A stretch of DNA of 64,000 bases. Origin: Lingula anatina (lineage: Eukaryota > Animalia > Brachiopoda). Below are positions 6,016 to 63,797 of this stretch, piece after piece. The position numbers and the translations under genes are program-made. Under the pieces are notes generated by a model. The model did no database searches. It was not told where the DNA came from and saw only the letters and a list, made by a program, of their open reading frames with translations. Where the stretch lies: the NCBI GenBank assembly GCA_051362555.1, contig CM120647.1, positions 19,010,651 through 19,074,650 of the forward strand, in the 5' to 3' direction. The first letter of the stretch is position 1, and every line of letters starts with the position of its first letter.

Positions 6016-6056
<41 letters not shown>

Positions 6057-6062
6057 GCACTT

Positions 6063-11110: not shown

Positions 11111-11376
11111 ATGACTTGCATCTCAGTGCTTGTTTATTTGCGTGTTGTCTGGCAGTTGTCTGGCAACAAACAAACGCCGTGTGCTGCTATGCTGTAGCGA
11201 AATGAGGGTTCTGCGGCGACTGCTCTAGGGTACCGTATAACTGGTTTTGCTTTTCAGACGTCAAACAGATCCTAACTATTGTAAGGCTTTGTACCGAGTT
11301 CAAAATGGGACTTGTGTAAGGAAGTTCACTTTACATAGTTTATTGCAATTTGATATCTCGCCTGGTAATTAATCCT

Positions 11377-11418
<42 letters not shown>

Positions 11419-12344
11419 AAGGCAAGCAGGTAGAGAAAACCATAACTGCTCATTTTACATTACAGAAAAATCCTCACTGTGGAAAAGGAGGTTGTAATAT
11501 TTTCGGTTGTGCATGTAGAGATGGCTGTAGAAATTACTGCGGACCCGTTTCAACGTAAGTTAAGTCTTTGTCTGCCCCCTCTCTCTCTATCATTTCAATT
11601 CCATACAAATAAAGATGGATATTCTCCAGTAATTAGATTGGTATGTGCGCGGGTGTGTAAGTAAATCCTAGCAGCTAACGTCTTCCACGCTCCGTGCATT
11701 TAAGGAGTTTTCCCATACCTTATCGTACTAACTTTGGATCGCTCTATCTACAAGGGGATTCTTGCTAATTTGCAATCGAACAAAGCGGGTAAGATGTCTG
11801 TCACGCCTCCGGAAGGTGCTAGGTGGAAATTATTGTTTAGCAGCTTCAGTTGGCGTGGAAGACATCTAAGCCGCTTAAGCTGAAAGCAATTAAGCGAGAA
11901 ACCCCATAATTAATACTATTGAATAAATAAATGGAAACTGAACATGGAGTTTCCATCAAAATCATCTATACCAGTGTAACGTGACAGAGAGTCCCCCATG
12001 ACAGAAACTCCGCCTCCCATTCATTTTTACAGGTAAACCACGCCCTTGATTTTGATTCACTTCGGTCAGGCTAACCCTAACCATTCTGATTACATGGAGG
12101 GCGTACTTTCTGTTACACGAACCCTCGATTTCTTTACTTCAGTTTGGTTTACTGAGCTGACGTCCTTTTTTCAGTGTGAAATCACGTGGATGGTTGAGGA
12201 AACCAGACAGCTCTTGCAGATGCACTCGCTTAAATGGAAAGGACGCCGAGGATGGTGAGATGGACGCCAGGGGAGTGTTTAACGCCATTGATGCATAGGG
12301 GTGAGTTTGAACGATGATTGCACATCGCACTTAACAAACACTCA

Positions 12345-13157: not shown

Positions 13158-13413
13158 GCCCCAGCTGCATCCACAGTGTTCAAGAAGATTGCAGTTTATA
13201 GTGTATGAATCAATTCTCTACCACGGCACATCTGTGATGTGAACACCAAATTGTATTATATTAAAATATAGTTTGTTTTTTATGCTTTAGAGCTGGCTAT
13301 CTAAACTCCGATGAATTCAACGCTGCCCATTTCAACATACATGATCAGGACTGAGAAGGGGATTAAAGGAGCGTTTGAAGACTTGGAAAAAAATGTTCGA
13401 TCTTGATCAGTAA
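11111..13413 (+). pseudogene. Mytimycin-like precursor pseudogene (psi1); exons 11111..11229, 11466..11554, 12175..12300, about 13291..13413
   Basis: Same tttcagaagATG context as the intact copies. Exon 1 is frameshifted and has TGA (QQTNAVCCYAVAK*GFCGDCSR). Exon 2 is an intact 89 nt (KNPHCGKGGCNIFGCACRDGCRNYCGPVS). Exon 3 reads VKSRGWLRKPDSSCRCT...VFNAIDA* (TAG 12296-12298) with a GG|GTGAGT donor. The EF exon is decayed (AGYLNSDEF..GAFED). Confidence 0.85.
11703..11906. mobile_element. Degenerate copy of the TTCCCATACC..AGGGGA MITE family in psi1 intron 2
   Basis: Similar to 21056-21274 (ttcccatacc...ggatc...aaggggatt..gctaa...ttagcagcttc). Confidence 0.5.
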
Positions 13414-18196: not shown

Positions 18197-18687
18197 CCAA
18201 TTGCCTTTATGCATATTAAGTTTCACAGTGTACTGGAAACACAAGTCTCTTAATTCTCTCTGCGAAAGAGCCCAATAATTATAACAAAGTGGTATTTGCT
18301 ACCTCGCGTAACGGCAAAATATACAGACAGCAACTTAGTCACGTTTAATTTATGCACTGGCCCCGTAAAGCTTTTATAGGAAAATGGGATGAAAGTGTGG
18401 CGGAATTTTTCAGTTTAAATGTTTGGCACATTGAAGCTGGGTTGAATGTTTAATATACCGGGTAGTTATCTGTAGAATTTGGGAATTAAGAAAAAAATAT
18501 CTAGTTCATCGTTGTCACTGTTAACGTTCTGAAAGAAAGAATTGCCTTGTTCTATGCGACGTTTTTCTAAAGTAACTAGAAAGGTTTGCTTTTACCAGGA
18601 CTCCAGCTTAAATATATATCAGAAAATATAATTAGTGATTGATGTTCGCATGCTGCAAATACAACATATTTTAATTGGATACTTGTT

Positions 18688-18753
<66 letters not shown>

Positions 18754-18956
18754 GTTTCCATTTTTACACTACAGAGAAACCCGTGCTGTTGAAATAGCAA
18801 ATGTAATGTATGAAACGCTATTCACGCAAAAAATCAGACTTGCAATTTAATAGCCAAATGACATTCTAACAGCCTACACAAAATGGCGTTCCATAGTAAT
18901 GCATTCGGTTGTGCATGTGATGTCGGCCGTAGACAAAGTTGTGACCCGATTCCTAC
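17460..18956 (+). pseudogene. Decayed family member (psi2): promoter relic 17460-17575 plus exon-2 relic 18873-18956
   Basis: ttcaaacgccgctgc..gactgtgga..cag|gtaaat resembles the D/E promoter and UTR exon. The exon-2 relic reads NAFGCACDVGRRQSCDPIP and ends AC|GTAAAA at the conserved phase-2 donor position. Confidence 0.6.
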
Positions 18957-19698
18957 GTAAAACAAACTCTCTCTTTTGATTTAATGATATATAATATAAT
19001 AAGAGGCACTCTTACTGTCTGGTGTACTTAACCATGGTTATACCTGCAAGTGGCCGAGAATTAAACCTAGTCTCCCTGCTATCGTCTTTCGTGTTCCGTG
19101 AAAAATGAGTATTTTACTTGAATATCATCATTCTTCATTCATATCGTATTTCATTCTCATGCAGATCAAAGTAATTTACAAATGAAAACTACCAGTATTG
19201 TTCAATGCGCTTTTGAAATAGACAAGCCGCTATCGATGTAAAGCCCCCATATCTCTGTTTCAGTCTGTCTCGGAGAGTTTTTTCTATCATGATATACCGG
19301 TATCTTCAAATGTGAAGGTTTTCAAACTTTGTAAAACGTCAGGTAAAGGTAGGAAAGTTGAATTAATGTTCTACTGAAGTTGCAAAATGTTCCACACCTG
19401 TGAAGCCTCTGTGAACTCAACAAAATCGTTTCATTTCACTAGGGACAGACACATGTGCCGAAAACAAGCCAAACTAAAAAAATAAATCATGACAGTACAA
19501 GTCGCATTGCTATCTGAATTTCATATAATTAACGTAATCATTTTGTCTCACATAATTCCAAATTTAATATCTCGCGAAATAAAAGGAAAAAAGTTGCATA
19601 AGTATCTGAATTACATATAAACAGCATTATCATTTCGTCTCACATAATGATAAAGGTATATTTCTAATTTCAATAAAGGGAGGAAGACGTGATGTTTT

Positions 19699-22054
19699 TT
19701 AGAGATACTGCAGATCAGAATCGAATTCCTGGCGATCAATCTTGCCGTCATCATTGGCGTCCATTTCCTTAAACGCAGCGTTAATATCTGGGTATCCCTG
19801 TAGGACAGTGCTGAGCTCATCCAAGCTTATATAACCATCTCTGAAACATAAAAAAAAAAGATTCGATTAACGCTACGTGCGTAGGTCACGTGACAGAGGG
19901 AGCCTTAACGAAGTCGAAAAGGGTTTTAAAATAAATTAAGTCTTTTTTTTCTGAATGAGCGCTCTACAGGGATAGTAGTATTTTAGCTTTCCACATTGCA
20001 GCTGAATAATCTGGTTATCATTTATGAAAGTGAATCTCACTGGGCACGACCAGTTAATGTAACAAACTATCTTACATGTAACTGATGTATATACACTCAA
20101 TAACGGCATATTTTATGTGGGTACATGCTCGAAGTTAAAATTCTACCCAAACAGAAGAAGCAAACCCGTGAACGCGAGTGAAGCACCATATTTAACCAAG
20201 GAGTTGGAATAACTTCTTGGTTTAATTTTACGAATCTGGAAACGGACTCAAAAACGCTCATTGTGAAAGACCATTTGTCTGAATAATTTGGCCTTGTGGG
20301 GAACCCCCTTAAGACCATCCCGGGACTCCACATTACATTAAATAACCCCTTAATAATAAAACCCCAGAGTTTAGCTCAAAGGGCTCACATCTTTGGAAAA
20401 CGCTATCTGTAATACTGCTACAGAGATTCCCAGGTTCCTTGTCTTAAACTCTGCACATAGAAAGGAATGAAAAGACTCCATGCTGTCACTTCAACAGAAT
20501 ATATTTCCTACACTATCAGTTACACGGTACAAGCCTCTCTCTCCTTCCCTCTCTCTCTCTCGTCTATCCCGTGTCATCTTCTAGCTATTCACCAATCTCT
20601 TCCAGATATAAGTTTACAGATCTTTATACTAAACTTTATCAATTAAACTGCCCATCATATAACTTATAAACTGATTGGTTACTTCAGACACATGTCCACC
20701 CCCTCATGGTTGTCAGTCCCATAAACTCCATGTAATCAAGCTCTAACAGATTATTAGCTTGAAACAAAGGACCTTAAGATTTGAACTGCAAGGTGTGATG
20801 TATTATCTGAAGCTACTTATACAATATGGCTTCCCACGAGTGAATTTTATGACACAATGGCTTCCTCTGATTGAATTAATACTACATCATATATAAAAGT
20901 TTTAAAAGCTCTAATTACACTTTTTCTATACTGTGGTTCCTGACACCCCGAGTGACGATTAATGAAGTTCGTATATATCAAAAGAGTTGTAACCTAAATT
21001 CGTATTAGGCTGGTGTAATTCTCACGTACAACTGTATGCCCCAGTTTGTGTCTGTGGCCCCGTTCCCATACCTGCGTCGATCTAGCAGGATCAACCCATC
21101 TCTGAGGGGTTTCTCGCTAAACTGCATTCGGCTTAAACGGGTCTGATGTCTGACACGTCTACTAAAGCTGTAAGGCGGTAATTAACTATCGTTTAGCAGC
21201 TTCGGCATTTTAACGAGAATCCCCTTGGAGATGGGTCGATACTAAAATATCGATCTCGTTATGGGAATGGGGTCTATGTGAACGCGTGTGGTCGGGCTGG
21301 CATGCGAGTTTGACGGTGTTGATTGAGTGTATCTGCACGTTCGTGTTCATGTTTATAAGTGAGGTGGTGTACGTGTATGTGTGTGTGTGCGTGCGTGTAT
21401 GTGTGAATGAGTGCGTTCGTGTGTATAGTAAGTACAATCATATAAAATTCAAACTCACCCATCTATATCAAGCTCGGCAAACATTTCATCTGGACCCCAG
21501 TTTTCGCCCTGATCATCCTGGCCTTCATCACCCTGGCCCTCATCTTCCTTGTCCTCATCTTCCTGGTCCTCAACGTCCTGGTCCTCATCTTCCTGGTCCT
21601 CAACATCCTGGTCCTCATCTTCTTGGCCCTCAACATCCTCAGCATCCCTTCTCCTTTTGTACGTACATCGGCAGCTTTGGTCCGGTATTTTCCACCAGCC
21701 TTTACTTATAGTACTGTACAAATAATGCGACGAACTCGTGTTTATTATATAGATTTTGACAAGGATCCTTTCTTTCTGGTGACAGATGTATGATAACGCC
21801 ACTTAATTACTAATTTTTTTTTCTTTTTTAATATTGAGTAGTGTTCGTTTATTTAATAATTTATTGTTTTTCTATGATTATTTTACTACGATGATTCCAT
21901 GTACAAATTTCTATTTGCTGGACAGAAATGTCCACAGAATACCCATGTAGGTGAATATATGTAAACATCTAGTGAAAAATTATATATATACATTTCGTTT
22001 TTAAAATGTACAGAAGTACTTCTTAAAAATCATTTGAACCCATTCGTTGTCTTC

Positions 22055-22097
<43 letters not shown>

Positions 22098-22601
22098 ACA
22101 TACGTGACCACAGGGACGCAGTCACTTCTACATTCAGAGGCACAAGCGCAGCCGAATATGTTGCACTTTCCGTATGAACAGTAAGGGGTTTTCTGTAAAG
22201 TGAAACGTGAAATTGTATAATAACTCTAGCTCTCTCTCTGTTTCGTAGACACACTTGCACCTACACACGATCGCGCTCTCACACTCGCACACACACACAC
22301 ACACAAAAACACGCAGCGTGAGAAAAGAGAAAAAATATTTCATAACGCTCACTGACATAAAATTGACTTCTGGGTTTAAGTCCCCTTGCAAACCTGTACA
22401 TTTTGAAACTAAAATATTGAGTGCCATAGTTTTCTGAATTCCGATGCTCTTTATCTAGCTCTTTAATATAGTAGGTCCTACCCTAGTGCAATCAAGGCAA
22501 TAATCTCCTTTGCCTCCTCGACAGCAGATTGCGGCGGTTTGCTGCACTATGGCTGCCAGGCAAGTCACAACCAACGCAAACACTGGAAGGGCAGTCATCA
22601 T
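19699..22601 (-). CDS. Mytimycin-like Cys-rich peptide precursor with acidic spacer and EF-hand pair, copy A (about 201 aa); complement(join(19699..19840,21459..21713,22104..22192,22482..22601))
   Basis: All introns are GT-AG and the frame is continuous: MMTALPVFALVVTCLAAIVQQTAA-ICCRGGKGDYCLDCTR|KTPYCSYGKCNIFGCACASECRSDCVPVVT|TISKGWWKIPDQSCRCTYKRRR-DAED(EDQ repeats)..FAELDIDG|DGYISLDELSTVLQGYPDINAAFKEMDANDDGKIDRQEFDSDLQYL*. Confidence 0.9.
21056..21274. mobile_element. MITE in copy A intron 3 (absent from the corresponding intron of C and D)
   Basis: TIRs ggccccgttcccata / tatgggaatggggtc. The empty site is visible in C (about 42545) and D (about 49360). Confidence 0.8.
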
Positions 22602-23339
22602 CTGAAATATGAAATATCAACATCTGGTTGGCGAAATGACAAACTGAGTTTCGGGGGACATTTGGGATTCGTCTTGACTGTCAGAGGCACGCTGGTTGCA
22701 TAGGGCTAATTAGGTTCTCGCTGTGCGCTGAATCTCAATGCACAAAAAGGCGAAAACTCCCGCGAAAATTTGTCTCATTTAACGTACATTTACGGTTGTT
22801 CTCAATCTATTCTAGAATATTCGGTGTATTTTTTACAGTTCTAATGTTCTTCTGCATTGAATGTAACGGTTCGAGAATTGTTTTTGGGAAGTCCTTCAGA
22901 ATGCCTTAGAACATATTAAGAACATTTTTTATCAAAAGCGAAAAACATTATGTTTTAGGACAGACTGAGAACAGTAAGTGAGCGTAAAATGAGACAAATT
23001 TTCGCACGGAGGCCTGTTGCAGCTATAGATACCACCCATTTGGGCTTCTTTCCTTACTGAAGAGGTCAACATGGTGGTATCTACCTGTAGCTGCAAAAGG
23101 CTCCTCGGCGTCATAAGTGTTTGCTATTATACTATACAGCATTCCTAGAAACTACCTTTAACAAAGTTTACCTGAGAACTCCGTTTCCTTTCACACAAAG
23201 TTTCCAAATAACTTCGTACCCACAGTTTGAACAATATATGCAGTTACCGACGGCTACGATAGCACCTTTTGAAATACCGAACACACCTGTATACTAGTGA
23301 GATGAAAGCATGTTACGCTGTCATCAAAGTTATGAAGAC

Positions 23340-23379
<40 letters not shown>

Positions 23380-23919
23380 ACCATACGTACAGATGCGGCA
23401 GAATAACCAGAATGCAAACCCTTAGAAAAGAGATACATTGAAAGTTTAAACTGACAACAACTCTTCACATGAAATTGAAAATTCTACAATAAATATATGT
23501 ACACACATACATTGTAAACAGCACAAAGAAATATAATGTATTACATTTTAGCACCAAAACAGTGGTTATTGCAATTATTCTCAAATCTGCGTTTACTATT
23601 GGGCCACGTCGACTTTGACAGATGGCTACCCTCCGTAAAAATAATAATAATCTTTATTAGAAAATCGCAACCCGAAGGTTGAAGATATACATATACATGT
23701 ATGTAATTTTTTTATTATTTTATTATATTTTATATTTTATTATTTTTTTATTATTCAAGTCAGAGAAGCCTGGTCGTTTTAGTATTTTTGCACTGGTGCA
23801 CTCTGTAGATGTTCTCACCTCCCTGGGGAGGATACAGCTCAGAAAAATATCTTAAAGGATCTACTAAAACTAGTGTGGAGTACACAAAGGGATAAAGGGG
23901 CTTTTTGGTGGTTGCTTAA

Positions 23920-24140
23920 GGACTGGGTTCCCACACCTAGATCAATCTAACAGGATCGACCCATCTCCAAGGGGATTTTCGCTAAATTGCTTTCAGCTTA
24001 ATAAGCGGCTTAGGTGTCTGGCACTCCTACTGAAGCTGTTGACCAATAATTAATAACCCCCTAGGAGCTTCAATGAGCGTGACAGACATGGCGACATCCC
24101 GTTGGAGATAGATCGATCCACACTTAGCACGCTGGGTCCA
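23920..24140. mobile_element. MITE of the same family as 21056-21274
   Basis: gttcccacacctagatcaatctaacaggatcgacccatctccaaggggattttcgctaaa aligns to 21062-21120. Confidence 0.6.
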
Positions 24141-25429
24141 GAAAATACCGGACAAATACCTGGTGTAAAAATCAAATTGAAGATGATGCTGAAGTTTTGT
24201 GTGAAATTTGAACAATTCTGCTTCTTTAGTAGAAAGCCCACAAAACTTTTATAACTTTTAAACAGAGTTTACAAAGTTAATAAAACACGCCTGTTGAAAA
24301 GGAGGCTTTTCGTAACTAATAAAGGTCCACAGGTAAGTTGTTCAGAAAAACACAGTCGCCCTTCGACGCCGCTACCTTCAGGAAAGCGTATCCTCCGCTT
24401 GGATCACCGGAATTTTTTTGTTATCTGACAAATTAGGGCAGATGTCAATTTACGTTTTAGCTTTTAATTCTGAATTTACTAATATTTTGGGCTGAAGTCG
24501 ACGTTAGATTTACAGACATGACGCAAAGCCACCAGAGTGACCGTTTAAATTTCAAATTATTATATTTCGTTTTCTTCCTGACGTTTGTTATTATCATTTG
24601 TTGCGCCACTTGTTGCACACACTGAAGATCTAAGGCAATTATGATACCATCCATTGTATAATAATCTAAGCTAGCCTTCACATTTAACAGACACAATTAT
24701 TCACACCTTTCAACACTACCGGTCTCCTCGAGGATGTCCCCATTTAGTGACATATCTCCAGATTCCCCGATTCAGCATAAACGCCCCCTGATTTATCAGA
24801 CGCGTGGCGATAAAATGTGTCGCTAGATCTTGTAAACACTCAGCGAAATGCACCTTGTGACTATATTCCATGTGCCGTCACTTAATTGCTTAATCAGATG
24901 GTTTTATGAACGATACATACCTAGGAATGTTATATAACCGTGGCGATATGATGATCACTGAAGCCTGTCCTCATACTTACTGAGAAAAAATACAGTCACG
25001 GGGGGAGGGGGGGGGAGTTCAGCAACGACTGCACGAGGGTACATCATCACTAATAATTTAAACATTAAAAAGTTTACTTAAAATTGTAGCAACCAAATAT
25101 GTAATAAGCTATGTACCGGTAAGTGCATAAATAAAAATTAAAAAGAAAAAATAATACGATTCACATTTAATTTATGCACTGGCCCCGTAAATCTAGTATA
25201 GGTAAATGGGATGAAAGAGTGGCGGAATTTTTCAGTTCAAATGTTTGGCACATTGAAGCTGGGTTGAGTGTTATATATACCGGGTAGTTATCTGTAGGAT
25301 TTAGGAATTAAGAAAAAAATTATCTAGTTTATCGTTGTCACTGTTAACGTTCTGAAAGAAAGAATTGCCTTGTTCTATGCGACGTTTTTCTAAAGTGACT
25401 AGAAAGGTTTGCTTTTACCAGGACACCAG

Positions 25430-25492
<63 letters not shown>

Positions 25493-25551
25493 AAATATAA
25501 TTAGTGATTGATGTTTGCATGCTGCAAATACAACATATTTTAATTGGATAC

Positions 25552-25623
<72 letters not shown>

Positions 25624-25746
25624 AATAGTTTCCATTTTTACACTACAGAGAAACCCGTGCTGTTGAAATAGCAAATGTAATGTATGAAACGCTATTCACG
25701 CAAAAAATCAGACTTGCAAATTAATAGCCAAATGGCATTCTAACAG

Positions 25747-25830
25747 CCTACACAAAATGGCGTTCCATAGTAAAGCATTCGGTTGTGCATGTGATGTCGG
25801 CCGTAGACAAAGTTGCGACCCGATTCCTAC
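25747..25830 (+). pseudogene. Duplicated exon-2 relic (psi3), a copy of 18873-18956
   Basis: gcattcggttgtgcatgtgatgtcggccgtagacaaagttgcgacccgattcctac|gtaaaa encodes AFGCACDVGRRQSCDPIP. Confidence 0.6.
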
Positions 25831-26576
25831 GTAAAACAAACTCTCTCTTTTGATTTAATGATATATAATATAATAAGAGACACTCTTACTGTCTGGTGTA
25901 CTTAACCATGGTTATACCTGCAAGTGGCCGAGAATTAAACCTAGTCTCCCTGCTATCGTCTTTCGTGTTCCGTGAAAAATGAGTATTTTACTTGAATATC
26001 ATCATTCTTCATTCATATCGTATTTCATTCTCATGCAGATCAAAGTAATTTACAAATGAAAACTACCAGTATTGTTCAATGCGCTTTTGAAATAGACAAG
26101 CCGCTATCGATGTAAAGCCCCCATATCTCTGTTTCAGTCTGTCTCGGAGAGTTTTTTCTATCATGATATACCGGTATCTTCAAATGTGAAGGTTATCAAA
26201 CTTTGTAAAACGTCAGGTAAAGGTAGGAAAGTTGAATTAATGTTCTACTGAAGTTGCAAATGTTCCACACCTGAGAAGCCTCTGTGAACTCAACAAAATC
26301 GTTTCATTTCACTAGGGACAGACACATGTGCCGAAAACAAGCCAAACTAAACAAATGAATCATGACAGTACAAGTCGCATTGCTATCTGAATTTCATATA
26401 ATTAACGTTATCATTTTGTCTCACATAATTCCAAATTTAATATCTCGCGAAATAAAAGGAAAAAGTTGCATAAGTATCTGAATTACATATAAACAGCATT
26501 ATCATTTCGTCTCACATAATGATAAAGGTACATTTCTAATTTCAATAAAGGGAGGAAGACGTGATGTATTTTAGAG

Positions 26577-28200
26577 CTACTGCAGATCAGAATCGAATTC
26601 CTGGCGATCAATCTTGCCGTCATCATTGGCGTCCATTTCCTTAAACGCAGCGTTAATATCTGGGTAACCCTGTAGGACAGTGCTGAGCTCATCCAAGCTT
26701 ATATAACCATCTCTAAAACATAAAAAAAAAGATTCGATTAACGCTACGTGCGTAAGTCACGTGACAGAGGGAGCCTTAACGAAGTCGAAAAGGGTTTTTA
26801 AATAAATTAAGTCTTTTTTTCTGAATGAGCGCTCTACAGGGATAGTAGTATTTTAGCTTTCCACATTACAGCTGAATAATCTGGTTATCATTTATGAAAG
26901 TGAATCTCACTGGGCACGACCAGTTAATGTAACAAACTATCTTACATGTAACTGATGTATATACACTCAATAACGGCATATTTTATGTGGGTACATGCTC
27001 GAAGTTAAAATTCTACCCAAACAGAAGAAGCAAACTCGTGAACGCGAGTGAAGCACCATATTTAACCAAGGAGTTGGAATAACTTCTTGGTTTAATTTTA
27101 CGAATCTGGAAACGGACTCAAAAACGCTCATTGTGAAAGACCATTTGTCTGAATAATTTGGCCTTGTGGGGAACACCCTTAAGACCATCTCGGGGCCCCA
27201 CATTACATTAAATAACCCCTTAATAATAAAACCCCAGAGTTTAGCTCAAAGGGCTCACATCTTTGGAAAACGCTATCTGTAATACTGTTACAGAGATTTC
27301 CAGGTTCCTTGTCTTAAACTCTGCACACAGAAAAGAATGAAAAGACTCCATGTTGTAACTTCAACAGAATATATTTTCCTACACTATCAGTTACATGGTA
27401 CAAGCCTCTCTCTCCTTCCCTCTCTCTCTCGTCTATCCCGAGTCATCTTCTAGCTATTCATCAATCTCTTCCAGATATAAGTTTACAGATTTTTATACTA
27501 AACTTTATCAATTAAACTGCCCATCATATAACTTATAAACTGATTGGTTACTTCAGACACATGTCCACCCTCTCATGGTTGTCAGTCCCATAAACTCCAT
27601 GTAATCAAGCTCTAACAGATTATTAGCTTGAAACAAAGGACCTTAAGATATGAACTGCAAGGTGTGATGTATTATCTGAATCTACTTATACAACATGGCT
27701 TCCTCTGATTGAATTAATACTACATCATATGTAAAAGTTTTAAAAGCACTAATTACTTTTTCTATACTGTGGTTCCTGACACCCCGAGTGACGATTAATG
27801 AAGTTCGTATATATCAAAAGAGTTGTAACCTAAATTCGTATTAGGCTGGTGTAATTCTCACGTACATCTGTATGCCCCAGTATGTGTCTGTGGCCCCGTT
27901 CCCATACCTGCGTCGATCTAGCAGGATCAACCCATCTCTGAGGGGTTTCTCGCTAAACTGCATTCGGCTTAAACGGGTCTGATGTCTGACACGTCTACTA
28001 AAGCTGTAAGGCGGTAATTAACTATGGTTTAGCAGCTTCGGCATTTTAACGAGAATCCCCTTGGAGATGGGTCGATACTAAAATATCGATCTCGTTATGG
28101 GAATGGGGTCCATGTGAACGCGTGTGGTCGGCCTGGCATGCGAGTTTGACGGTGTTGGTTGAGTGTATCTGCACCTTCGTGTTCAGTTTTATAAGTCAGG

Positions 28201-28237
<37 letters not shown>

Positions 28238-29427
28238 CGCGTTCGTGTGTATAGTAAGTACAACCATCTTAAATTCAAACTCACCCATCTGTATCAAGCT
28301 CGGCGAACATTTTATCTGGACCCCAGTTTTCGCCCTGATCATCCTGGTCTTCATCACCCTGGCCCTCATCTTTCTGGTCCTCAACATCCTGGTCCTCATC
28401 ACCCTGGCCCTCATCTTCCTGGTCCTCAACATCCTGGTCCTCATCTTCCTGGCCCTCAACATCCTCAGCATCCCTTCTTTTGTTCCTACATTGGCAACTG
28501 TAGTCCGCCCCTTTCAGCCAGCCTCTGGATTTTTCACTGTACAAATAATGCGACGAACCCGTGTTTATTATATAGATTTTGACAAGGATCCTTTCTTCCT
28601 GGTGACAGGTGGATGATGACGCCACTTAATTACTAATCTATTTTTTCCTTTTTAATATTGAGTAGTGTTCGTTTATTTAATTTTTTTTTTTTTGTTTTTC
28701 TATCATTATTTTACTACGATGATTTCATGTACAAATTTCTTTCTGCTGGACAGAAATGTCCGCAGAATACCCATGCAGGTGAATATAGGTAAATATCTAG
28801 TGAAAAATTATATCTATACATTTCGCTTTTAAGATGTACAGACGCACTTCTTTAAAATCATTCGAACCCATTCGTCTTTCAAAAGAGAGAGAGAGAGAGA
28901 GAGAGAGAGGAAGAAATTTATACATACGTGACGAAAGGGTTGCAGTCCCTTCTACATCCAGAGGCACAAGCGCAGCCGAATATGTTGCACTTTCCGTATG
29001 AACAGTAAGGGGTTTTCTGTAAAGTAAAACGAGAAATTGTATAATCACTATATATCTCTCTCTCTCTGTTTGGTAGACACACTCGCACCTACACACGATT
29101 GCGCTTTCACACTCCGTACACATACGCACAAAAACACGCGCAGCGTGAGAAAAAGGAAAAATATTTCATAACGCTCACTTACACAAAACTGACTTCTGGG
29201 TTTAAGTCCCCTTGCATACCTGTACATTGTGAAACTAAAATATTCAGTGCCGTAGTTTTCTGTATTCCGAAGCTCTTTATCTAGCTCTCTAATATAATAA
29301 GCCCTACCTTAGTGCAATCAAGGCAATAAATTCCTCTAGTTTCTCGACAGCAGATTGCGGTGGTTTGCTGCACTATGGCTGCCAGGCAAGTCACAACCAA
29401 CGCAAACACTGGAAGGGCAGTCATCAT
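26577..29427 (-). CDS. Mytimycin-like precursor, copy B (about 198 aa); complement(join(26577..26712,28285..28536,28928..29016,29308..29427))
   Basis: MMTALPVFALVVTCLAAIVQQTTA-ICCRETRGIYCLDCTK|KTPYCSYGKCNIFGCACASGCRRDCNPFVT|EKSRGWLKGADYSCQCRNKRR-DAED..FAELDTDG|DGYISLDE..DANDDGKIDRQEFDSDLQ*; canonical splice sites. Confidence 0.9.
27892..28111. mobile_element. MITE in copy B intron 3 (duplicated together with the segment)
   Basis: Near-identical to 21056-21274. Confidence 0.8.
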
Positions 29428-30150
29428 CTGAAATATGAAATATCAACATCAGGTTGGCGAAAAGACAAACTGAGTTTCAGGGGATATTTGGGATTCGCCT
29501 TGACTGTTAAAGGCACGCTGGTTGCATAGGGCTAATTAAGTTCACGTTGTCCGCTGAATCTCAATGCGCAAAAAGGCGAAAATGTGTCTCATTTAACGTT
29601 CACTTACGGTTTAATCTATTCTAGAACATTTGGTGTGTTTTTTACAGTTCTAATGTTCTTCTATAGTGAATGTAACAGTTCGAGAATTGTTTTCGGGAAG
29701 TCCTTCAGAATGTCCTAAAACAGTTTAAAAACATTTTTTATCAAAAGCGAAAACATTATGTTCTAGGAGGGACTAAGAACCGTGAATGAGTGTTAAATGA
29801 GAGAAATTTTCGCACGGAGGCCTTTTGCAGCTATAGATACCAACACTTTTGGCAACCTCTTCAGTAAAGAAAAGAAGACAACATGGCGGCATCTACCTGT
29901 GGCTGCAAAAGGCCCCTTGGCGTCATTAATGTTCGCTATAATGCTATACAGCATTCCAAGAAACTACCTTCAACAAAGTTTACCTGATAACTCCGTTTCC
30001 TTTCACACAGAGTTTCCAAATAATTTTGTACCTACAGTTTGAACAATATATACAGTTACCAACGGCTACGATAGCACCCTTTGAAATACCAAACACACCT
30101 GTGTACTAGTGAGATGAAAGCATGTTACGCTGTCATCAAAGTTATGTAGA

Positions 30151-30199
<49 letters not shown>

Positions 30200-30475
30200 A
30201 CCATACGTACAGATGCGTCTGAATAACCATACAACACGTCATACATTTAACACTGATGAATGGAACAGATTAATGTTAAGCATATTTTACTTCACTATGA
30301 TAATATGACGAGATTATGATTAAATGAATTGCGAATTTTATGTTATTCAGTATGTACTTCGCTTAAAAAAAATTAAAAAAGGAGTGTATGTTGTAAAGTT
30401 TAAGAATTCGAGGACAAATTCTCTTGAAGAAAGGGTGTATGTTGTAAAGTTAATTACTTACACTTACACTAATTA

Positions 30476-32070
30476 GGCCACACTTTTTTATTTTTATGGA
30501 TGACATCCTGCGCGCGCACCGATTTTCGTCCGTTCTCTCCAAAAAAAAAATAAATAATAATAATAATAGTAAATAATAAAATAAAATAAAATAAAATAAA
30601 ATAAAAATAAATAAATAAATAAATAAATAAAGATCCCCCCCCCCCATTCCAAGTCGGTTGTCGCAAACGTCGTTATTGAATTTGCCGAAAAATGAGCTTT
30701 CTGCGCATTTTTGCGCATGCCTATTACTGCAACGTGGAAATATGGCCGCTTTGCCGTCAAATTCATCTCTAAGATTATACTTTCAAATTACAGGACAATT
30801 AATTATATAAATTCATAAAGAGAACGGGGCCGTTGTTTTGGATCGTTATGCCTTTAATATTGGGCATGGAGATATTCACTTTCTTTACAATTATGCAAAA
30901 TAATAATAATAATAATAATAATAATAATTTATTGTCATATTTATACAAATATAAAATGAAAATTGGTATGATCTGTCGATCAAATGTAATACAGTGGAAT
31001 TATTAAAATACATTTTGTTCATTAAAAATACGTACTGCTGATGGATAAAAACTATTCTTAGTGCGCGTGGAGGTTGCTTTTAATGACCGCAGTTGACATA
31101 TGCATAAGTAGGCTATTCGCTGGGTGACCAGGGTCACTCGTAATTGACTTTACTTTCTTGAGCACTCGTCTCGTATACAAACATTCAATAGACGGCAGGT
31201 CCCTACCTACAATGCGCCTGGCAGTTTTTACTACGCGATTGAGGCGATTCTTGTCCTCTACTGTAGCACTACTGTACCAGACGGTGAAAGATTGTGTTAG
31301 CACACTCTCAATCACAGCCCGGTAAAATTTTGCCAGCAGTTCTTGGTTGACATAGAATGACCTCAATCGTCGTAGAAAGTAGAGTCTTTGCTGAGCTTTG
31401 CGGACAATATCATCTATGTTAATGTGCCATTTAAGATCATCAGATATATGTATGCCAAGAAATTTGAAATGTCTGACTATTTCAACCTCAGAACCATTCA
31501 GCGTAAGATGGCTAATTTCTGTTGGGTTTTTCCTAAAATCTACAATAATTTCTTTTGTCTTTTTAACATTAAGCTCGAGGTCGTTTTCAGAGCACCATGA
31601 AACAAGGGCCGAAACTTGATTTCGATAGTCAGACTCGGAAGTGCTAATAAGGCCAGCGCAGGTGGTATCATCCGCAAACTTAACAATCAAGCAATCAGGA
31701 TACGAAGCAACACAGTCGGATGTAAACAGAGAATATAAAAAAGGCTGTATCTAGATCAAATTTTACCCAGAGTGGGCCTTTTCCCAGCAAAAGGGGTGGT
31801 TCCTTCGAACCCCCTGGCTACGGGCCCGTCTTCTCATGACTTTTTTTTACCTTTCTGAGAAGTATTCACAATGCTTTAATATTCTGAGAGCATGGATAAA
31901 GACATATTGTTAGTTTAATACGTGTTTCTGTGGTGAATTTGTGTTTCCAGCTGTGTACTGACAGCATTCCTTTATTTAAGCAGCATTTTTGACTGTTTTT
32001 TTTTTTTTTTCACCCTCTCGCACCGATTTCGGGGTCCCCAGAGGATGTCATCCATAAAAAAAGTGTGGCC
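30476..32070. mobile_element. Non-autonomous TIR element with a TTA TSD (PIF/Harbinger-like), hosting nested insertions
   Basis: TTA|GGCCACACTTTTTT..TATGGATGACATCCT and AGGATGTCATCCATAAAAAAAGTGTGGCC|TTA. Confidence 0.7.
30901..31745 (-). mobile_element. 5'-truncated non-LTR retrotransposon fragment (Rex1/Babar-like RT C-terminus), frameshifted
   Basis: LYSLFTSDC..IVKFADD, FKFLG and KAQQRLYFLRRL; the NSFYPSAVR tail is in another frame; (TTA)n 3' tail at about 30901-30930. Confidence 0.85.
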
Positions 32071-35006
32071 TTACAAAAATCAAATAGATGAAAAGTTAGA
32101 CTGATATTGAGTGTAAATTAAGTTTCATCAAGTGTCAACAAGTGTAGAATATGTTTTAAGTGTCAGAAAGAGATGGAAAAGGTCAAAGTCAATAACATTT
32201 AATGTGATTGGTTAATTTCATAACAGATTTTAATTTTGATCAACTGTTCATCACATTATAACTGAGTTTTGGACATGATTCAAGTATGAGTAATACAAAT
32301 AGTATTTTGGATAAGTTTAGTTGAAAACAAGGCTCTTAGACATTGACTAATAAGGGAATGTTCTATGGTTAAGTCAACATGACAATTGACATTTTCTGGA
32401 AATCACGCCATAAACAATAAAAATAACATAATTACACGCGTGATCAGTACGGAGAATTAGAGTATAAATATGGTAAAATTGTATGAAACGTGAGTGGTTA
32501 ATAAATGATTGAAGACTCCGGAACCTCGTCGTCGTTATGATAGTTAGTACGCTGGGTCTGGGAACGGTCCGTAGAAACTAGTACCGGACAAATACCTGGT
32601 GTAAAAATCAAATTGAAGATGATACTGAAGTTTTGTGTGAAATTTGAACAATTCTGCTTCTCTAGTAAAAATCCCACACAGCTTTTATAACTTTTAAACA
32701 AAGTTTACAAAGTTTGACAACCTTCACATTCTACCCAGAGAAAAATATCAATTAAACTGATGGGCTGAAATGTCTAGACATATGACGGTTATACTGTGAA
32801 AGTGTCTCATACATCTGTTATTGAAAACGCACATTACAATACTGGTACTAACAACTTTTGATTCAGAAACTACTTTGATCTTCTGTATACGGGAATGCAA
32901 TGCAGAATGACTGGAGATTCATGATAAATAATTGATATGCACCTCTAGGGGTAAAGAGTGTGAACATTAAAACTTACGATGAAGTGGTAATAAAACTTAA
33001 TTCGTTCTCGTTATCATAAGACTGCTTGCATCAAATGAAACCCTTGCAATTAAGATAATCTCTCTCTCTCTCTCTTTCTCTCTTTCGCTCCAGCAGTATC
33101 CAAGGGAAATGGTCTCATACTGGTAGTTTTTAAAAGTTTATAAACTTATAGCTTTTCGTTTGAAAAAAAAAAAAAACTATTCCTAAAAAAATACATTTCG
33201 TCTTTCAATTCTTGACTAAAACTATCGCCAGTCTCAAATTTCCATTCACTGCTCAACTCGTGTTGATCAAAATTATTTACAAATGATTTTTACAGTGTGC
33301 AAAGCTAAGTAAAAACAGGCCAACTACTGTCTTAACAGACTTAACCTGCGGTCGCTGTATGTATAGACGTTTAGTTTCTCTTGGAGATAAATTGTATATT
33401 TTTCTTCATGTAAGCCGGTGTAACATGAAAATCTGACTCCCATGAAAATGTGACTCCCCAGTCAGATTTTCATAATGAAAATCTGACTCCCCCCATGAAA
33501 ATTTGACTCCCCCTCCACAAAACTTCATACATCTTATTTTATTTTGAGTATATGACTGTGATCTTGTATTATGTAAAATGGTTGATACATTGGCACATTT
33601 TTTGTAGTTTGCAGTGAAAATTTTAATGAAAAAATGAGAAAATTAAAAATGTGCACATAATGAAAATCTGACTCCCCCATGAAAACTGACTCCCCCATCA
33701 TAAAACTTCATAAATCTTATTTATTTAGGGTATATGACTTTAATCTTTAGTATGTAAAAAGGAGGATAGATTGGCACATTTTTTTTTGTAGTTTGCAGTG
33801 AAAATTTTCATGAAAAAATAAGAAAATTAAAAATGTGCACATAATGAAAATCTGACTCCTCCATGAAAATTTGACTCCCCCTCCACAAAACTTCATAAAT
33901 CTTATTTTATTTTGAGTATATGACTGTGATCTTGTAGTGTGTAAAAAGGAGGATAGATTGGCACATTTTTTTGTAATTTGCAGGTGAAAATTTTAATGAA
34001 AAAATAAGAAAATTAAAAATGTCCACTTAATCGCCTATTGTCTCCCCTATGAAAAAGTTATTTAATATTTGATGATCATTTCAACACCTTTTCTTTTAGG
34101 ATACATTATGAAAAATATATTGGAAATATTTAAAGGTTTGATGATAAAATAGTGAAAGCATGAAAAAGAAATCATGAAAATCTTTATTTTTACACCCATG
34201 AGATTTGGACTCCCATGGAGAAAAGGACCTATTTTATATTCATTCACCATACCACTGTTCCCACATAGTTTGCATAGAGATGGATATTTTGTCATTATTT
34301 GAAAGTTTGATGATGAAAATTTTGGTCAATATTTTTAAAACAAGTATCCATCTTTATTCTCGTAGGTTTTGCACTCCCATGGTATAAGTAGCGACATGTG
34401 CCTCAATGGAGATTACCCCTCTAGGGCACAATTGAGCATGTGCAGAATGCACATGTGCGTAATTAAGCTCTGGAGATTGTTGTCGCCATAAAATGTCGTT
34501 TGACTACACCGGACTTTCCTATAAAGTTTTGTGGAGGGGGAGTCAAATTTTCATGGGGGAGTCAGATTTTCATTATGTGCTCATTTTTAATTTTCTTATT
34601 TGTTCATTAAAATTCTCACTGCAAACTACAAAAATGTTCCAATGTATCAACCATTTTACATACTACAAGATCACAGTCATATACTAAATTAATTAGAGAC
34701 ATGTGACACGTGACATGTGTACGCTATAGACACTAGTGTAAACGCTCTGCTGTTTTCTGTAGATGAAATCTCTCCTTGGACACTGATCGAAATAACAAAG
34801 TTACAGGTGGACTATAAAGGTACACTGTATCAGGTAACGCACTTCATTATAGAAAAAACGCTCATTATAACGCGAAGATTTGGATTTTTTCATTTGAACT
34901 ATAGGCCTATATCTATACGTACAGAAAGAAACTGTCAAATTTGAGAAGTGCTCAACGTTACGCAATCGGAAGCTATAGTTCCTTTGTTACCCGAACAATA
35001 GACACA

Positions 35007-35942
35007 ATGGCATCTAATAACCCCAGCGAAAACGAACAAAGCGGACAAAGGACCTCAGACAAAGTCCCGAAGAAAATGCTGCAACTACAGATCAACTCGA
35101 CTCCCGCATATATACGGCACAGCAATGCCAGTGGGAAAAGACCACAAAAGAAGAAAAGAACAAGATCAAACAGCATGGACTTAACAGAAAACATTACGGT
35201 AGACGAACTACGATCCATCCAAGCTACTCTAGCAGAGATTAAAAGTGAAATGATAAGAAAATCTGACGTTAAGGAAATCATTGCCCAAATGAAACATGAA
35301 ATCAAGCAGGAGGTGAAGGAGGATATTAAACAAGAAATGCAACAATACTTGACTGATAGACTCAGCCTCCTGAGCGAGAAAATAGATGCCCTATATCTGG
35401 AAAACGAATCCCTGCGTGAGAAACTCTCCAAACAAATCAGTGACACAAGGAAGTCCTTTGACAACCTAAAAGAAACCAGCCATTTGGCGAAAACAGCTGT
35501 GAGAATGGCAAACCACAACCAGCAGTATTCGCAGAAAAACAACATTAAGTTTTTAAACTGGCCGGAAAAACCAAAAGAAGACCTGAGGAGAGACCTCTGC
35601 CGCATCCTGAAGGAAAAGGTGAATGTGGACATAAGCCCCGCCTCAATTCTGGGAATCCACAGAATACCAGGTAACAGCGGAGGCGCAAGACCCGTTATAG
35701 CCAAATTCGTTAACACCGAGGAAAAAACGAAAGTTATCAAGCATAGACAAGTACTGAAAGGTAACTTTATAATGTTCGATCACATTACTCAGAAAAATGC
35801 TGAGTTGATCAAAATTCTAAAAGGTAAAGAAGCTGTACATTCAGCCTGGTACTTCAATGGCAGAATATTTGCCATAAGAAATGACGGTCGCCGATATACA
35901 TTCGACATATTCGACGATATCGACACCAAATTAAAACAATAA
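35007..35942 (+). CDS. L1/Tx1 ORF1p (coiled coil plus RRM/CTD, Transposase_22/L1TD1-like)
   Basis: ATG at 35007 (MASNNPSEN); heptad-rich segment, QYSQKNNIKFLNWPE, IHRI and RPVIAKF motifs. Confidence 0.85.
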   Translation: MASNNPSENEQSGQRTSDKVPKKMLQLQINSTPAYIRHSNASGKRPQKKKRTRSNSMDLTENITVDELRSIQATLAEIKSEMIRKSDVKEIIAQMKHEIKQEVKEDIKQEMQQYLTDRLSLLSEKIDALYLENESLREKLSKQISDTRKSFDNLKETSHLAKTAVRMANHNQQYSQKNNIKFLNWPEKPKEDLRRDLCRILKEKVNVDISPASILGIHRIPGNSGGARPVIAKFVNTEEKTKVIKHRQVLKGNFIMFDHITQKNAELIKILKGKEAVHSAWYFNGRIFAIRNDGRRYTFDIFDDIDTKLKQ

Positions 35943-36400
35943 GCCTGAAAATGAACTTTATACGGACACTGAAATTTTGGAGAATAAAAATCAATGTAAA
36001 ACTGAAAGTAGTTATAAACAGCAGAGCGGTAACTGTTAACTAGCCGTTCTAGCATCAATTTATTATTATCATTATTATTATCATTATTTTTTTAATTACT
36101 AGTTATTAGTACTATCCTGTGTATGTGTGTGTTTTCGATAGTTTGTCTTGGTGTGTATGTCAATTCTGGTAGAATGGGTACAAGTGGTCTACTGTATGCG
36201 TGGGTGGATGGAAGTGAATTTGATAACGCATTATATAGTATAACCGATATATATGTAGTTAAGTTATCCCTATTAGTTTGCAACAACGAAACACTTAGAT
36301 TTGATACCTCAGTACGATTGCTTTACCTACACTTAGAATATGGCTGTGCGATTTAAATTTATTTTCTGTCGTATATACATATGCGGCAGAAACCTGGTAG

Positions 36401-41325: not shown

Positions 41326-42405
41326 ATGACTACATTTGCCATTTTTGCGTTAGTTGCCTTGGGTCTGGCAACTTTAATGGAGAAAGCTGAATCTGACTGT
41401 TGTGGCTCGAAGGAAGCGGGGTTCTGCGCAGACTGCTCGAAGGTGAGTCCACTAGTACCGGGGTATTTGCCCGGGAAGTGCATTCAGAACACATTCAAAA
41501 CACAGGAATGACATCAGGCGAAAAATGACACCATACATTTTGGTTGTAAATGTACAACAAATCTAGAAGTCCATCTTTCTATTGTTAATTGAAGTTCGAT
41601 ACTTAAATAGTCGTCATGAAATAATTATGTACGCACTGTATGTGTGTGTCTGCGCGTTTGTATGCGTGTGCAGTGTTTGTGCGCGTGTAGGAGGAGGGGC
41701 TGGGCAGAGAGAAAGAGAGAGGGAGAGAGATAGTAATTAATTCGCGATTTCCATTCCAGGGAACCCCTTACTGTTCATATGGAAAATGTAACATATTTGG
41801 CTGCAAGTGTGAACGTTCATGTAGAAGCGACTGCGGCTCGGTCTTCACGTAAGATGTTTCTCTTGCTATAAATACTTGGAATGAACTTAAAGAAATACAT
41901 CATGTACATGTACATGTACATGTACATCTTTTAAAAATACACAAGATATTCACACATATTTCTATTCTGCGTACATTTCTGACTACATGTACCAGTAAAA
42001 ATAAATAAATGAAATAACCATAGTAAAATATTGATAGAAAAACAAAAATAAAAATAAATAAATAAATGAACACTTGTAATAATAACAACAAGGAATAGAT
42101 AAACAATACAGTGACCTTATCATCCGCTTGACACCTGGAAGAGAGTGTCCTTGTCAAAGTTAATGCAATAAACACGAGATTCTCGCATTATTTGCAGATA
42201 CGCACATCAAGGATGGCTGAAGAGACCCGACGATAGATGCACATGTACGAACGAAGGGAGGAGAAGGGACGCTGAGGACTTTGAGGACCAGAATGTTGAA
42301 GACCAGGAAGATGAGGACCAGGGTGATGAAGACCAGGATGATCAAGGCGAAAACCTGGATCCAAATGAAGTGTTTGACACGATTGACAGAGATGGGTATG
42401 TTTAA
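41326..42405 (+). CDS. Mytimycin-like precursor, copy C, lacking its own EF-hand exon; exons 41326..41442, 41760..41848, 42198..42395 (read-through stop at 42403-42405)
   Basis: MTTFAIFALVALGLATLMEKAES-DCCGSKEAGFCADCSK|GTPYCSYGKCNIFGCKCERSCRSDCGSVFT|YAHQGWLKRPDDRCTCTNEGRRR-DAEDF..VFDTIDRDG(YV*). No exon-4 homolog was found before copy D. Confidence 0.8.
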
Positions 42406-48140: not shown

Positions 48141-50038
48141 ATGACTACCTTTGCTACTTTTGCATTTATTGGATTGGTTCTGGCAGCTTTAATACAGCAA
48201 GCTGAATCTCTCTGCTGTGGCAAAGGGAAGAGGGGTTTCTGCGCAGACTGCACGAAGGTGGGTCTACTAGAACCGGTGTATTAACCGGGGTATTTTCTCG
48301 GGAAGTGCATACGTAACACATACACAACACATGTATGGTATAAGGTGAACTTAGCATTACAAAGAAAAAATGACACCGTACATTTAAGTTATTGAAATTG
48401 AAATGCAATACGTAAATGGTCGCCTGGAAACCATTATGTACGTGTGTGTGTACCCGTGTGTTTGTATGCGTGCGCCGTGTTGGTGAGCGTGTGTAGGAGG
48501 AGGATTGAGCAGAGAGAAAGAGAGAGGGAGAGAGAGATTAATTAATTCACGATTTACATTTCAGGCATCCCCTCACTGTTCATATGGGAAATGTAACTCA
48601 TTTGGTTGCGCGTGTGATAGTCCATGCAGAAGTGACTGCGGTGCGGCCATCTTGTAAGATCAAGTCGCTCTCTCTTTCTCTTGCTTTAATACAACCAATG
48701 GCTTGAAATGAATTTCACGAAAAACGTCATGTACATATTTATAAAATATCACAAGACATTCACATATACAGGTATTTCCCTGGCTATTCTGCGTACATTT
48801 TTGTGTTAGTTACAGTAAAAATTAGTAAATGAAATAACCAGAGTAAAATAAAGATAGGAAAACAATAAATGAATGAATGAAAATAAGTAAATATTAACAA
48901 CAAGAAATAGGTTAATAAAATAGTGAATTCATCATCCACCTGACATCATGAAGAGAGTGTTCTTGTCAAAGTCAATGTAATAAATACGAGATCGTTGCAT
49001 TATATGCACAGTTTCATGTACATACGTCAAGGCTCGACGATGAGACCCTACGCCAGTTGCAGATGTACGAATAACGGGAGGAAAAGGGATGTTGAGGACA
49101 AGGAAGTTGAGGACCAGGAAGACGAGGACCAGGCTGGTGAGGACCAGGATGATCAGGGAGAAAACTGGGGTCCAAAAGAAATGTTTAACGCGATTGATAC
49201 AGACGGGTGAGTTTGAACTGTGGATGCTATTACTTGATTACTACACGCACGCATGCACACACGAAAAGAATCACGTGTAAACATTAACATGAACGTGCAG
49301 ATGTCGGTACTAGTACCAACACCGTCAACTTCACATGCCACCCAATCACGCATGTTCACATACATGTAGACCCATACTGTGGCTTTCAGATGTACATGAA
49401 AATTACATAAGCCTAATACAAATTTACGTTTCAACTGTTTTGATATTTACGAACTTTTTTATTCGTCTCTCAAGGCAAATTATTCAGATCAAATGTTGTT
49501 GTTTTTTTCACAACAGGTGTTTTAGGGGCCTGTTCCAGGTTCGTTAAACTAAATCAAGAATTTCTCCCAACTCCTTGGTTAAACATGGAGCTTCACTCGC
49601 TTTCACAAGTTTGCTTTCTTCAGAATTTTAACCTGGTACACGCGCCCATAACACATAAAATATGGCGTAACTGAGTGTAAATCAGTTTAAAAATGTTAGT
49701 CTCTTATAGTAGCTGACCGTGTCTAGCGTGGTTCACTGTCATTGTAACCAGATTATTCAACCGCAAATCTACGAAAATATAACACTTCATGTGAAGAGCT
49801 TGAGAAAAAAAGCCTAAGATAAACACTTTTCGGCTTCGTTAAGGCTTCCTCTGTCGCGTGGCCTACCGCACGTAGCGTTTATCGGGTTTTGTTATGTTTT
49901 AGAGATGGTTATATAAACGTGGATGAGTTCAGCAATGTCCTACAGGGATACACAGATATTAACGCTGCATTTGACGACATGGACGCCAATGATGACGGCA
50001 AGATTGATCGCAAAGAGTTCGACCCTGATCTGCAATAG
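48141..50038 (+). CDS. Mytimycin-like precursor, copy D (178 aa); join(48141..48257,48565..48653,49012..49206,49903..50038)
   Basis: MTTFATFAFIGLVLAALIQQAES-LCCGKGKRGFCADCTK|ASPHCSYGKCNSFGCACDSPCRSDCGAAIF|FMYIRQGSTMRPYASCRCTNNGRKR-DVED..FNAIDTDG|DGYINVDEFSNVLQGYTDINAAFDDMDANDDGKIDRKEFDPDLQ*. Confidence 0.9.
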
Positions 50039-60656: not shown

Positions 60657-60665
60657 CTAGACCAT

Positions 60666-63250: not shown

Positions 63251-63797
63251 ATGATTACTTTTGCCATTTTTGCGTTAGTTGCGTTGGGTCTGGCAGCTGT
63301 AATGCAGGAAGCTGAATCTGACTGCTGTGGCACCAAATCGAAAGGGTTCTGCCCAGACTGCACGTTGGTGGGTCTACTAGTACCGGGGAATTTCATCGGG
63401 AAGTGCATTCAAAACACATTGACAACACGTGTTGTATTAGGCGAACTTTGCATTACAGGAAAAAATAATACCGCACATTTTAGTTATAAATGTGCGACAA
63501 AGCTAGAAGTCCAATTTTATATTGTTTATTAGAATTTGATACGTACAGTAAATGGTGGTCAGAAAATCATTCTGTAGATACATGTTTGTGTGCGTGCCAG
63601 TTCGTTTGTATGCGTGTGCAGTGAAGGTGGGGGTGTGCCTAGGAGGGGGATAGAGCAGAGAGAAAGAGAGAGGGAGAGAGAGTAATTGATTTACGATTTC
63701 CATTCCAGGGAACCCCTTACTGTTCATATGGAAAATGTAACATATTTGGCTGCAAATGTGAACGTTAATGTAGAGCGGACTGCGGCTCGAAAATAGA
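63251..63797 (+). pseudogene. Mytimycin-like copy E with a premature TAA in exon 2; exons 63251..63367 and 63709..63797, remainder outside the window
   Basis: MITFAIFALVALGLAAVMQEAES-DCCGTKSKGFCPDCTL|GTPYCSYGKCNIFGCKCER*(63766-63768)CRADCGSKI. The exon is still 89 nt with a GA|GTATGA donor. Confidence 0.8.

Follow-up and report, generated by a model that had tools for sequence, protein, structure and literature searches.

The stretch of DNA analysed here (the window) comprises 64,000 nucleotides of the brachiopod Lingula anatina (assembly GCA_051362555.1, contig CM120647.1, positions 19,010,651 to 19,074,650 of the forward strand); coordinates are counted from its first letter. It carries a cluster of genes for mytimycin-like, cysteine-rich peptides, of which six copies were identified and named A to F. 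The youngest pair, A and B, lies in a duplication that was revealed by self-comparison, where the block 18339..23409 holding A matches the block 25161..30229 holding B with 92% identity (no strand is assigned to the blocks). Copies A to E of the initial annotation were all recovered, while the sixth copy, F, and two exon-2-like relics had been missed.

Genes A and B are each encoded on the minus strand by four coding exons with canonical splice sites (AG/GT) and an open frame. In A, coding exon 1 (22482..22601) encodes a predicted signal peptide of 24 residues and mature residues 1-16 with Cys 1-4. Exon 2 (22104..22192) contains a conserved Diedel-type core, the first 57 nt being the same as in B, and a variable loop, with Cys 5-10. 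Exon 3 (21459..21713) carries the hypervariable mature tail with Cys 11-12 (21659-21713), a basic cleavage site, an acidic repeat linker and the start of the first EF loop. Exon 4 (19699..19840) is the EF-hand exon. The exons of B were defined by codon alignment as 29308..29427, 28928..29016, 28285..28536 and 26577..26712 (the EF-hand exon), with additional support from RNA joints at both ends of exon 1 (run X19) and for exon 2. The 3' end of a non-coding first exon of B lies at 29984..30021 on the same strand (upstream limit approximate), and A carries the same non-coding-exon donor at ~23172.

The precursor begins with a leader of 24 residues, followed by a 64-residue peptide that carries the 12 Cys; then come the basic site, the acidic repeat linker and two EF loops. 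By inspection, the leader is a hydrophobic segment ending before the CC pair. The Cys spacing (0,7,2,6,4,4,1,3,3,18,1) is identical in A, B, C and D, and the computed isoelectric point of the mature peptides is 8.0-8.8. Exon 4 of D, which is paralogous to the EF exon of A, matches Pfam EF-hand_5 (E 5e-9). The acidic linker was seen to differ in repeat number: A and B have a long one, C and D a short one, and F almost none.

Codon alignment of A and B revealed 8 different nucleotides in 5 codons of the exon-1 mature part and 6 in 4 codons of exon 2, and the residue is changed in all nine differing codons. The signal peptide differs at 1 nt and the EF exon at 2 nt, and all 12 Cys are fixed, in agreement with the hand counts of the initial annotation. 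One of the two EF-exon differences removes in A the stop common to B and D, which adds 2 residues. The statement that A and B differ almost only by amino-acid-changing substitutions overstates these counts: in the whole mature peptide, about 29 of the 34 differences are nonsynonymous and 5 synonymous. These 34 nucleotides fall in 21 of the 64 codons and produce 19 residue changes and two Ser/Ser codons, one with a plain silent change and the other needing two nonsynonymous steps. With the Nei-Gojobori method (NG86), 28.8 nonsynonymous and 5.2 synonymous differences were counted for the whole mature peptide, giving a ratio of nonsynonymous to synonymous divergence (dN/dS) of 1.79-2.25. As about three quarters of the sites are nonsynonymous, much of the 'almost only' pattern is due to the genetic code. 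Random scatter of changes was simulated 10,000 times for each region: with 14 changes over exons 1-2, the lack of any silent-only codon had a P of 0.014-0.056, and with 34 changes over the whole peptide, two or fewer such codons had a P of 0.018-0.108. The scarcity of silent-only codons is borderline.

Sparing of the Cys is beyond chance (P 4e-4), and chance does not account for the 57 identical nt of the core either (P 1.5e-6, for a block picked after the fact); exon 2 overall differs at 6/89 nt, below the intron background. In the exon-3 tail 20/55 nt differ, against 1/55 and 1/52 in its flanks, and the peak of A/B divergence has the same borders as the coding part of this tail.

Expression was followed in three RNA runs (X19, X16 and X13), with reads mapped over B exons 1-2 and the upstream region. 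Splicing of B exon 1 to exon 2 (29016/29308) is shown by 10 reads of run X19, and splicing of exon 1 to the non-coding first exon (29427/29984) by 6 reads; beyond 25 loose ends at 28928, the sequence is that of a B-like exon 3. No exon reads were present over the mapped region in run X16, and run X13 gave a few reads on exon 2. A B-like copy is therefore spliced in RNA. The B-like RNA of X19 shows further residue changes at mature positions 36, 39 and 40. These belong to a loop that also distinguishes A from B, and position 36 has three states once this RNA is included. In 40 of the 254 rows of read differences, those in B exons 1-2 comprise 6 nonsynonymous and 1 silent, three of them in loop 36-40, numbers too small for a pN/pS ratio. 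Loose ends of X19 at 28970 and 29014 were also observed, which represent expressed paralogs matching no copy in the window; the family is thus larger, or varies between animals.

A neutral yardstick for A and B was sought in the noncoding DNA, where divergence changes abruptly. It amounts to 165/1590 (10.4%) on the 5' side of ~21322, from the promoter to just past exon 3, and to 62/2802 (2.2%) on the 3' side, comprising the rest of intron 3, the EF exon and the 3' flank. This step has a twofold log-likelihood difference of 132, was equalled in none of 200 permutations and has its matching point in B at ~28150. It is likely a breakpoint where gene conversion or an unequal crossover has recently made the 3' halves of the two copies alike. 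The EF exon was ruled out as a neutral-rate control, as it sits in the 2.2% tract, and for the same reason its two differences correspond to the background level. The conserved contrast that the initial annotation drew between signal peptide and EF exon on one side and mature peptide on the other is therefore retained for the signal peptide (1/72 in the 10% tract, P about 0.01) and lost for the EF exon.

The same step could be explained if A and B were two allelic versions of a single locus, placed in tandem by the assembly, with the 10% half as an old balanced polymorphism. The 2.2% of the 3' tract is near the heterozygosity of 1.6% published for Lingula (PMC4595640), and A-state and B-like sites occur mixed in the transcripts of X19. 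The flanks of the A and B blocks are however non-homologous, and run X3 has 4-5 distinct contigs per place with this degree of likeness, which exceeds two alleles if the run represents one animal. An allelic origin is thus very doubtful.

With A and B taken as separate genes, the mature peptide was compared with the local introns. The proportion of nonsynonymous differences (pN) is 0.195-0.20 in the mature region, against a divergence of 0.097 in introns 1-2. Relative to the intron/upstream divergence, mature dN is higher by a factor of 2.1-2.3, with P about 0.001 in a Fisher test and P 0.014-0.030 in a block bootstrap. When 1485 noncoding sites and the 64 mature codons were fitted jointly by maximum likelihood, the intron-anchored dN/dS ratio, omega, was estimated at 2.66 (P=4e-5). 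Mature dN/dS thus stays above 1 after the divergence of introns 1-2 is accounted for. The excess comes mostly from the exon-3 tail, the exon-3 part having an omega of 7.65, and the synonymous estimate of the tail is raised too (proportion of synonymous differences, pS, 0.30-0.33). For exons 1-2, a two-class model gave P=0.004, 0.047 and 0.17. What had been proposed initially, diversifying selection on the inter-Cys loops, is thereby supported in part: there is an excess over the introns, yet it is uneven and model-dependent.

The predominance of the tail brings in a second explanation, by which a short gene conversion brought the tail of exon 3 into A or B from an older paralog; the divergence of the tail would then reflect age and not faster substitution. 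The A-B distance of the tail (0.36) is indeed like those of A-C (0.38), A-D (0.36) and B-C (0.40), and the tail has a roughly 4-fold higher synonymous estimate (P about 0.02). Moreover, the step at 21322 shows exchange between copies, and the RNA loose ends reveal paralogs outside the window. Against import, no donor of the tail was found among C, D and F, and exons 1-2 keep the two-class signal without the tail (P 0.004-0.01). Both ends of the imported tract would also have to coincide with those of the mature tail, which would itself suggest that selection kept the tract. Import by conversion is considered quite improbable as the source of the pattern.

Diversifying selection was then evaluated over several copies. 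Copy C (41326..42395, +) consists of exons 41326-41442, 41760-41848 and 42198-42395 with the 12 Cys intact; an EF exon of C was not found in the window by tblastn, hidden Markov model (HMM) or blastn. Copy D (48141..50038, +) is complete, with exons 48141-48257, 48565-48653, 49012-49206 and 49903-50038. Copy E (63251..63797, +) has exons 1-2 in the window before it runs off the edge, and is likely a pseudogene, with an in-frame stop in exon 2. Copy F (11111..12299, +; exons 11111-11229, 11466-11554 and 12175-12299) is a pseudogene with a short acidic linker, damaged by a one-base shift in the signal and by stops in exons 1 and 3. Near 13290-13400, a decayed EF-like exon was noticed by eye. A decayed exon-2-like relic at 18866..18958 and its duplicate inside the B block (25740-25832) lie on the plus strand, opposite to A and B. 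The evidence for them is weak (HMM E 0.002 and 0.026 for the two, and 46% divergence from F exon 2). GT/GA repeats precede both relics, as in the real intron 1. A tblastn match resembling exon 3 at 43630-43701 (E 0.63) was not recovered by the exon HMMs and was taken as chance.

Site models were fitted to the 64 codons with our own code for the Goldman-Yang model (GY94) rather than codeml, and site posteriors are naive empirical Bayes. For copies A-D, models with positive selection were preferred (M2a vs M1a, P 0.0035; M8 vs M7, P 0.003; M8 vs M8a, P 0.0008), with an omega of about 6 on 22% of the sites and top positions 5, 6, 36, 47, 53 and 58. Addition of E and F gave P 0.0001-0.0003. The observed value of 11.3 was reached in 0/22 and 0/21 null simulations, which are small numbers of replicates.

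Several results speak against positive selection, or lessen its weight. Judged on the peptide's own silent sites, dN/dS is not significantly different from 1 (binomial P 0.15-0.46). At the silent sites of unchanged codons there is less divergence than expected, 1 difference against 5-6 (P 0.02-0.035), so that the introns may overstate the neutral rate or the exons may have been locally homogenised; in either case the intron yardstick is imperfect. The intron-anchored omega of exons 1-2 alone is 1.46 (P=0.24), and the comparison of C with D is not significant either (mature pN 0.25 vs introns 0.20, P=0.17). The site models weaken to P 0.047-0.048 with other codon frequencies and to P 0.04-0.07 with synonymous-rate variation, and all four fits with free multi-hit codon models lose significance (P 0.25-0.86). 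Sets with only one of A and B give P 0.065, 0.083, 0.58 and 0.60, and the exon-3 tail alone gives P=0.36 over four copies. Averaged over the mature peptide, dN/dS falls short of 1 in 14 of 15 pairs.

The loss of significance with multi-hit models is also what would be expected if the loops were unconstrained (omega about 1), with clustered multi-nucleotide changes and rate variation mimicking positive selection. Free double-hit fits match the selection models, the M1a multi-hit fit for A-D having a log-likelihood of -697.0 vs -699.5 for single-hit M2a. The mature region holds 12 pairs of adjacent differences vs 6 expected, and a bias of this kind is documented (bioRxiv 10.1101/165969). The flanking noncoding DNA, however, has no such excess: 21 adjacent A/B differences stand against 17.0 expected, or 8 against 12.7 without two poorly aligned patches, which gives no sign of a high local rate of multi-nucleotide change. 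The intron-anchored omega remains above 1 with double hits set at 2% (2.09, P=0.003) and at 5% (1.65, P 0.04), and neutral loops are expected to be about 10% diverged, not 36%. Relaxed constraint is for these reasons held improbable. Diversifying selection has probably acted on the loops of the mature peptide, most strongly on the exon-3 tail.

Further features were noticed elsewhere in the window. An intact-looking long interspersed nuclear element (LINE) lies between B and C (34905-40237, +), with a first open reading frame (ORF1) of 345 amino acids and an endonuclease/reverse transcriptase ORF2 of 1278 amino acids; a related, decayed copy lies at ~54971-58266 and another reverse transcriptase fragment at 31058-31750. 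Upstream of B exon 1, the segment 29570-29800 is a high-copy repeat with a contig depth above 20,000 in run X3 and opposite-strand joints. It is adjoined by an inverted repeat (~29815-29915), resembling a miniature inverted-repeat transposable element in the first intron of B. Tandem arrays occupy 6030-6990, 7406-8592 and 59240-61920, with periods of ~161, 337 and 155-160 nt. A DUF1647 gene is located at 1059-2150 (+), of which the segment 1203-2147 is 97% identical from end to end to a Lingula anatina protein, the sole match at E 1e-20 among 537 candidates of similar length; this places the host in Lingula.

Taken as a whole, the data are best read as follows, with a probability of roughly 65%: mytimycin-like precursors of Lingula release a host-defence peptide whose loops diversify around a fixed Diedel-type core. 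Furin-type cleavage, masking by pro-regions and birth-and-death evolution are generally known processes. The signal would direct secretion, and a furin-type cut at the basic site would release a cationic peptide of 64 residues, the 12 Cys of which may form six disulfides. Until cleavage, the acidic EF-hand pro-region could mask the cationic peptide and keep it inert. The fixed core would serve folding and binding, and the loops would be tuned against changing microbes, with pathogen-driven selection acting on mature positions 5-9, 36-44 and 47-58. Birth-and-death turnover with exchange between copies would account for the two pseudogenes, the copy without EF exon and the two relics. By analogy, the peptides are likely secreted host-defence effectors, antifungal or antimicrobial. 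Such activity is attributed to them purely by likeness, because mytimycin inhibited Neurospora and Fusarium (PMC3210125). Of the two roles named in the initial annotation, host defence fits the family likeness, and nothing suggests a venom toxin. Fast loops on a fixed Cys scaffold are commonplace in defence peptides, which makes the selection finding a modest one; the noteworthy parts are the occurrence in a brachiopod and the Diedel core. As a natural pair differing only outside the core, A and B are well suited to asking what the loops do.

The core was recognised in copy C, the one of the six that was scanned. Its exon 2 matches Pfam PF13164 (Diedel) with 23.3 bits (cut-off 21.3; E 8.9e-5) over profile positions 45-64 of 76, and PDB entry 3zzo with E 0.0015. 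The matched block belongs to subdomain SD2 of Diedel and is the one that is identical in A and B. With Diedel (Drosophila CG11501) the Lingula peptides share an N-terminal CC, a central Cys loop with an Asn-Ile-Phe motif and a conserved core amid divergent surroundings. In contrast, the Lingula peptides have 12 Cys where Diedel has 10, their lengths seem to leave no room for the ferredoxin-like subdomain SD1, and their C-terminal acidic EF-hand pro-region is missing from Diedel as described. With its crystal structure (3ZZO), Diedel could serve as a structural template and points to a candidate binding loop.

This likeness gives rise to another interpretation, namely that the peptides are Diedel-like cytokines, the Asn-Ile-Phe loop binding a host receptor and damping immune or apoptotic signalling, with the loops diversifying to escape mimics or to change partners. 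In Diedel SD2, the exposed loop Asn77-Ile78-Phe79 was proposed as an interaction site (PMC3307722), and the motif is found at mature 27-29 in A, B and C, although the Ile is changed in D. Diedel itself is secreted and acts as an anti-apoptotic cytokine, of which viruses carry homologues (PMC6072105). The architecture, however, is that of mytimycin, the fungal inhibitor; the SD1 segment of Diedel (29-59) is far longer than the loop of 7 residues in the Lingula peptides; and the rapid duplication, the pseudogenes and the cationic charge are in keeping with effectors. A cytokine role is consequently regarded as unlikely, and the host-defence reading is preferred. On the origin of the core, we lean slightly towards mytimycins being a branch of the Diedel superfamily, the core and EF-hand precursor having been present in the brachiopod-mollusc ancestor (or passed between the two lineages) and surviving as the positively selected Lingula cluster. 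If so, a mussel antifungal peptide whose structure and core disulfide bonds are undetermined according to PMC8004829 would be tied to the solved fold of an insect cytokine pirated by viruses, which would predict the core disulfides of mytimycin and an Asn-Ile-Phe binding loop. The available part of PMC8004829 does not mention Diedel, and no paper linking Diedel with mytimycin was among the matches listed in a literature search. A search for papers tying mytimycin to Lingula or brachiopods, in the text that was available, found none; subscription papers were outside its scope, which makes this weak evidence. A 2018 survey of Lingula immune genes and a 2016 paper on Diedel and IMD may already mention these genes.

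The closest known system is mytimycin. Of the five mytimycin Cys arrays on a 10-Cys backbone, type II, CC followed by 10 single Cys (Table 1 of PMC8004829), is present in A, B, C, D and F. By eye, against sequences in the supplement of that paper, A is identical to Perumytilus Perpur_1 at 21 of 28 residues (mature 11-38, ungapped) and shares 18 of the first 33 residues with M. galloprovincialis K1. Both systems have a signal peptide (~23 residues in mussels, 24 in Lingula), the CC and 10 Cys, a basic cleavage site, an anionic EF-hand extension, a non-coding first exon, purifying selection on the central block and pseudogenes among the copies. The spacing of Cys 1-8 (0,7,2,6,4,4,1) is common to Lingula and M. 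galloprovincialis A1/K1, and a Cys 8-9 spacing of 3 to Lingula and Perna, Modiolus and Perumytilus. In mussels, weak positive selection was reported for 8 of 67 codons (PMC8004829). The differences lie in the spacing of Cys 9-12 (3,18,1 in Lingula; a longer Cys9-10 and a shorter Cys10-11 loop in mussel type II), the length of the mature peptide (64 residues vs about 54), the long acidic repeat linker of the Lingula precursors and the number of exons (4 coding exons vs 3 exons in mussel MytM; PMC3210125). The host differs as well: a brachiopod cluster of mytimycin architecture contradicts the restriction to Mytilida stated in PMC8004829. In view of these differences in spacing, exon number and host range, the genes are filed, on their sequences, as mytimycin-like Diedel-core peptides and not as mytimycins proper. 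In their evolutionary pattern they also resemble the mussel myticins and CRP-I, likened here by description and not by sequence: these have other Cys arrays, and share the conserved pre-pro regions, fixed Cys, variable loops and copy turnover.

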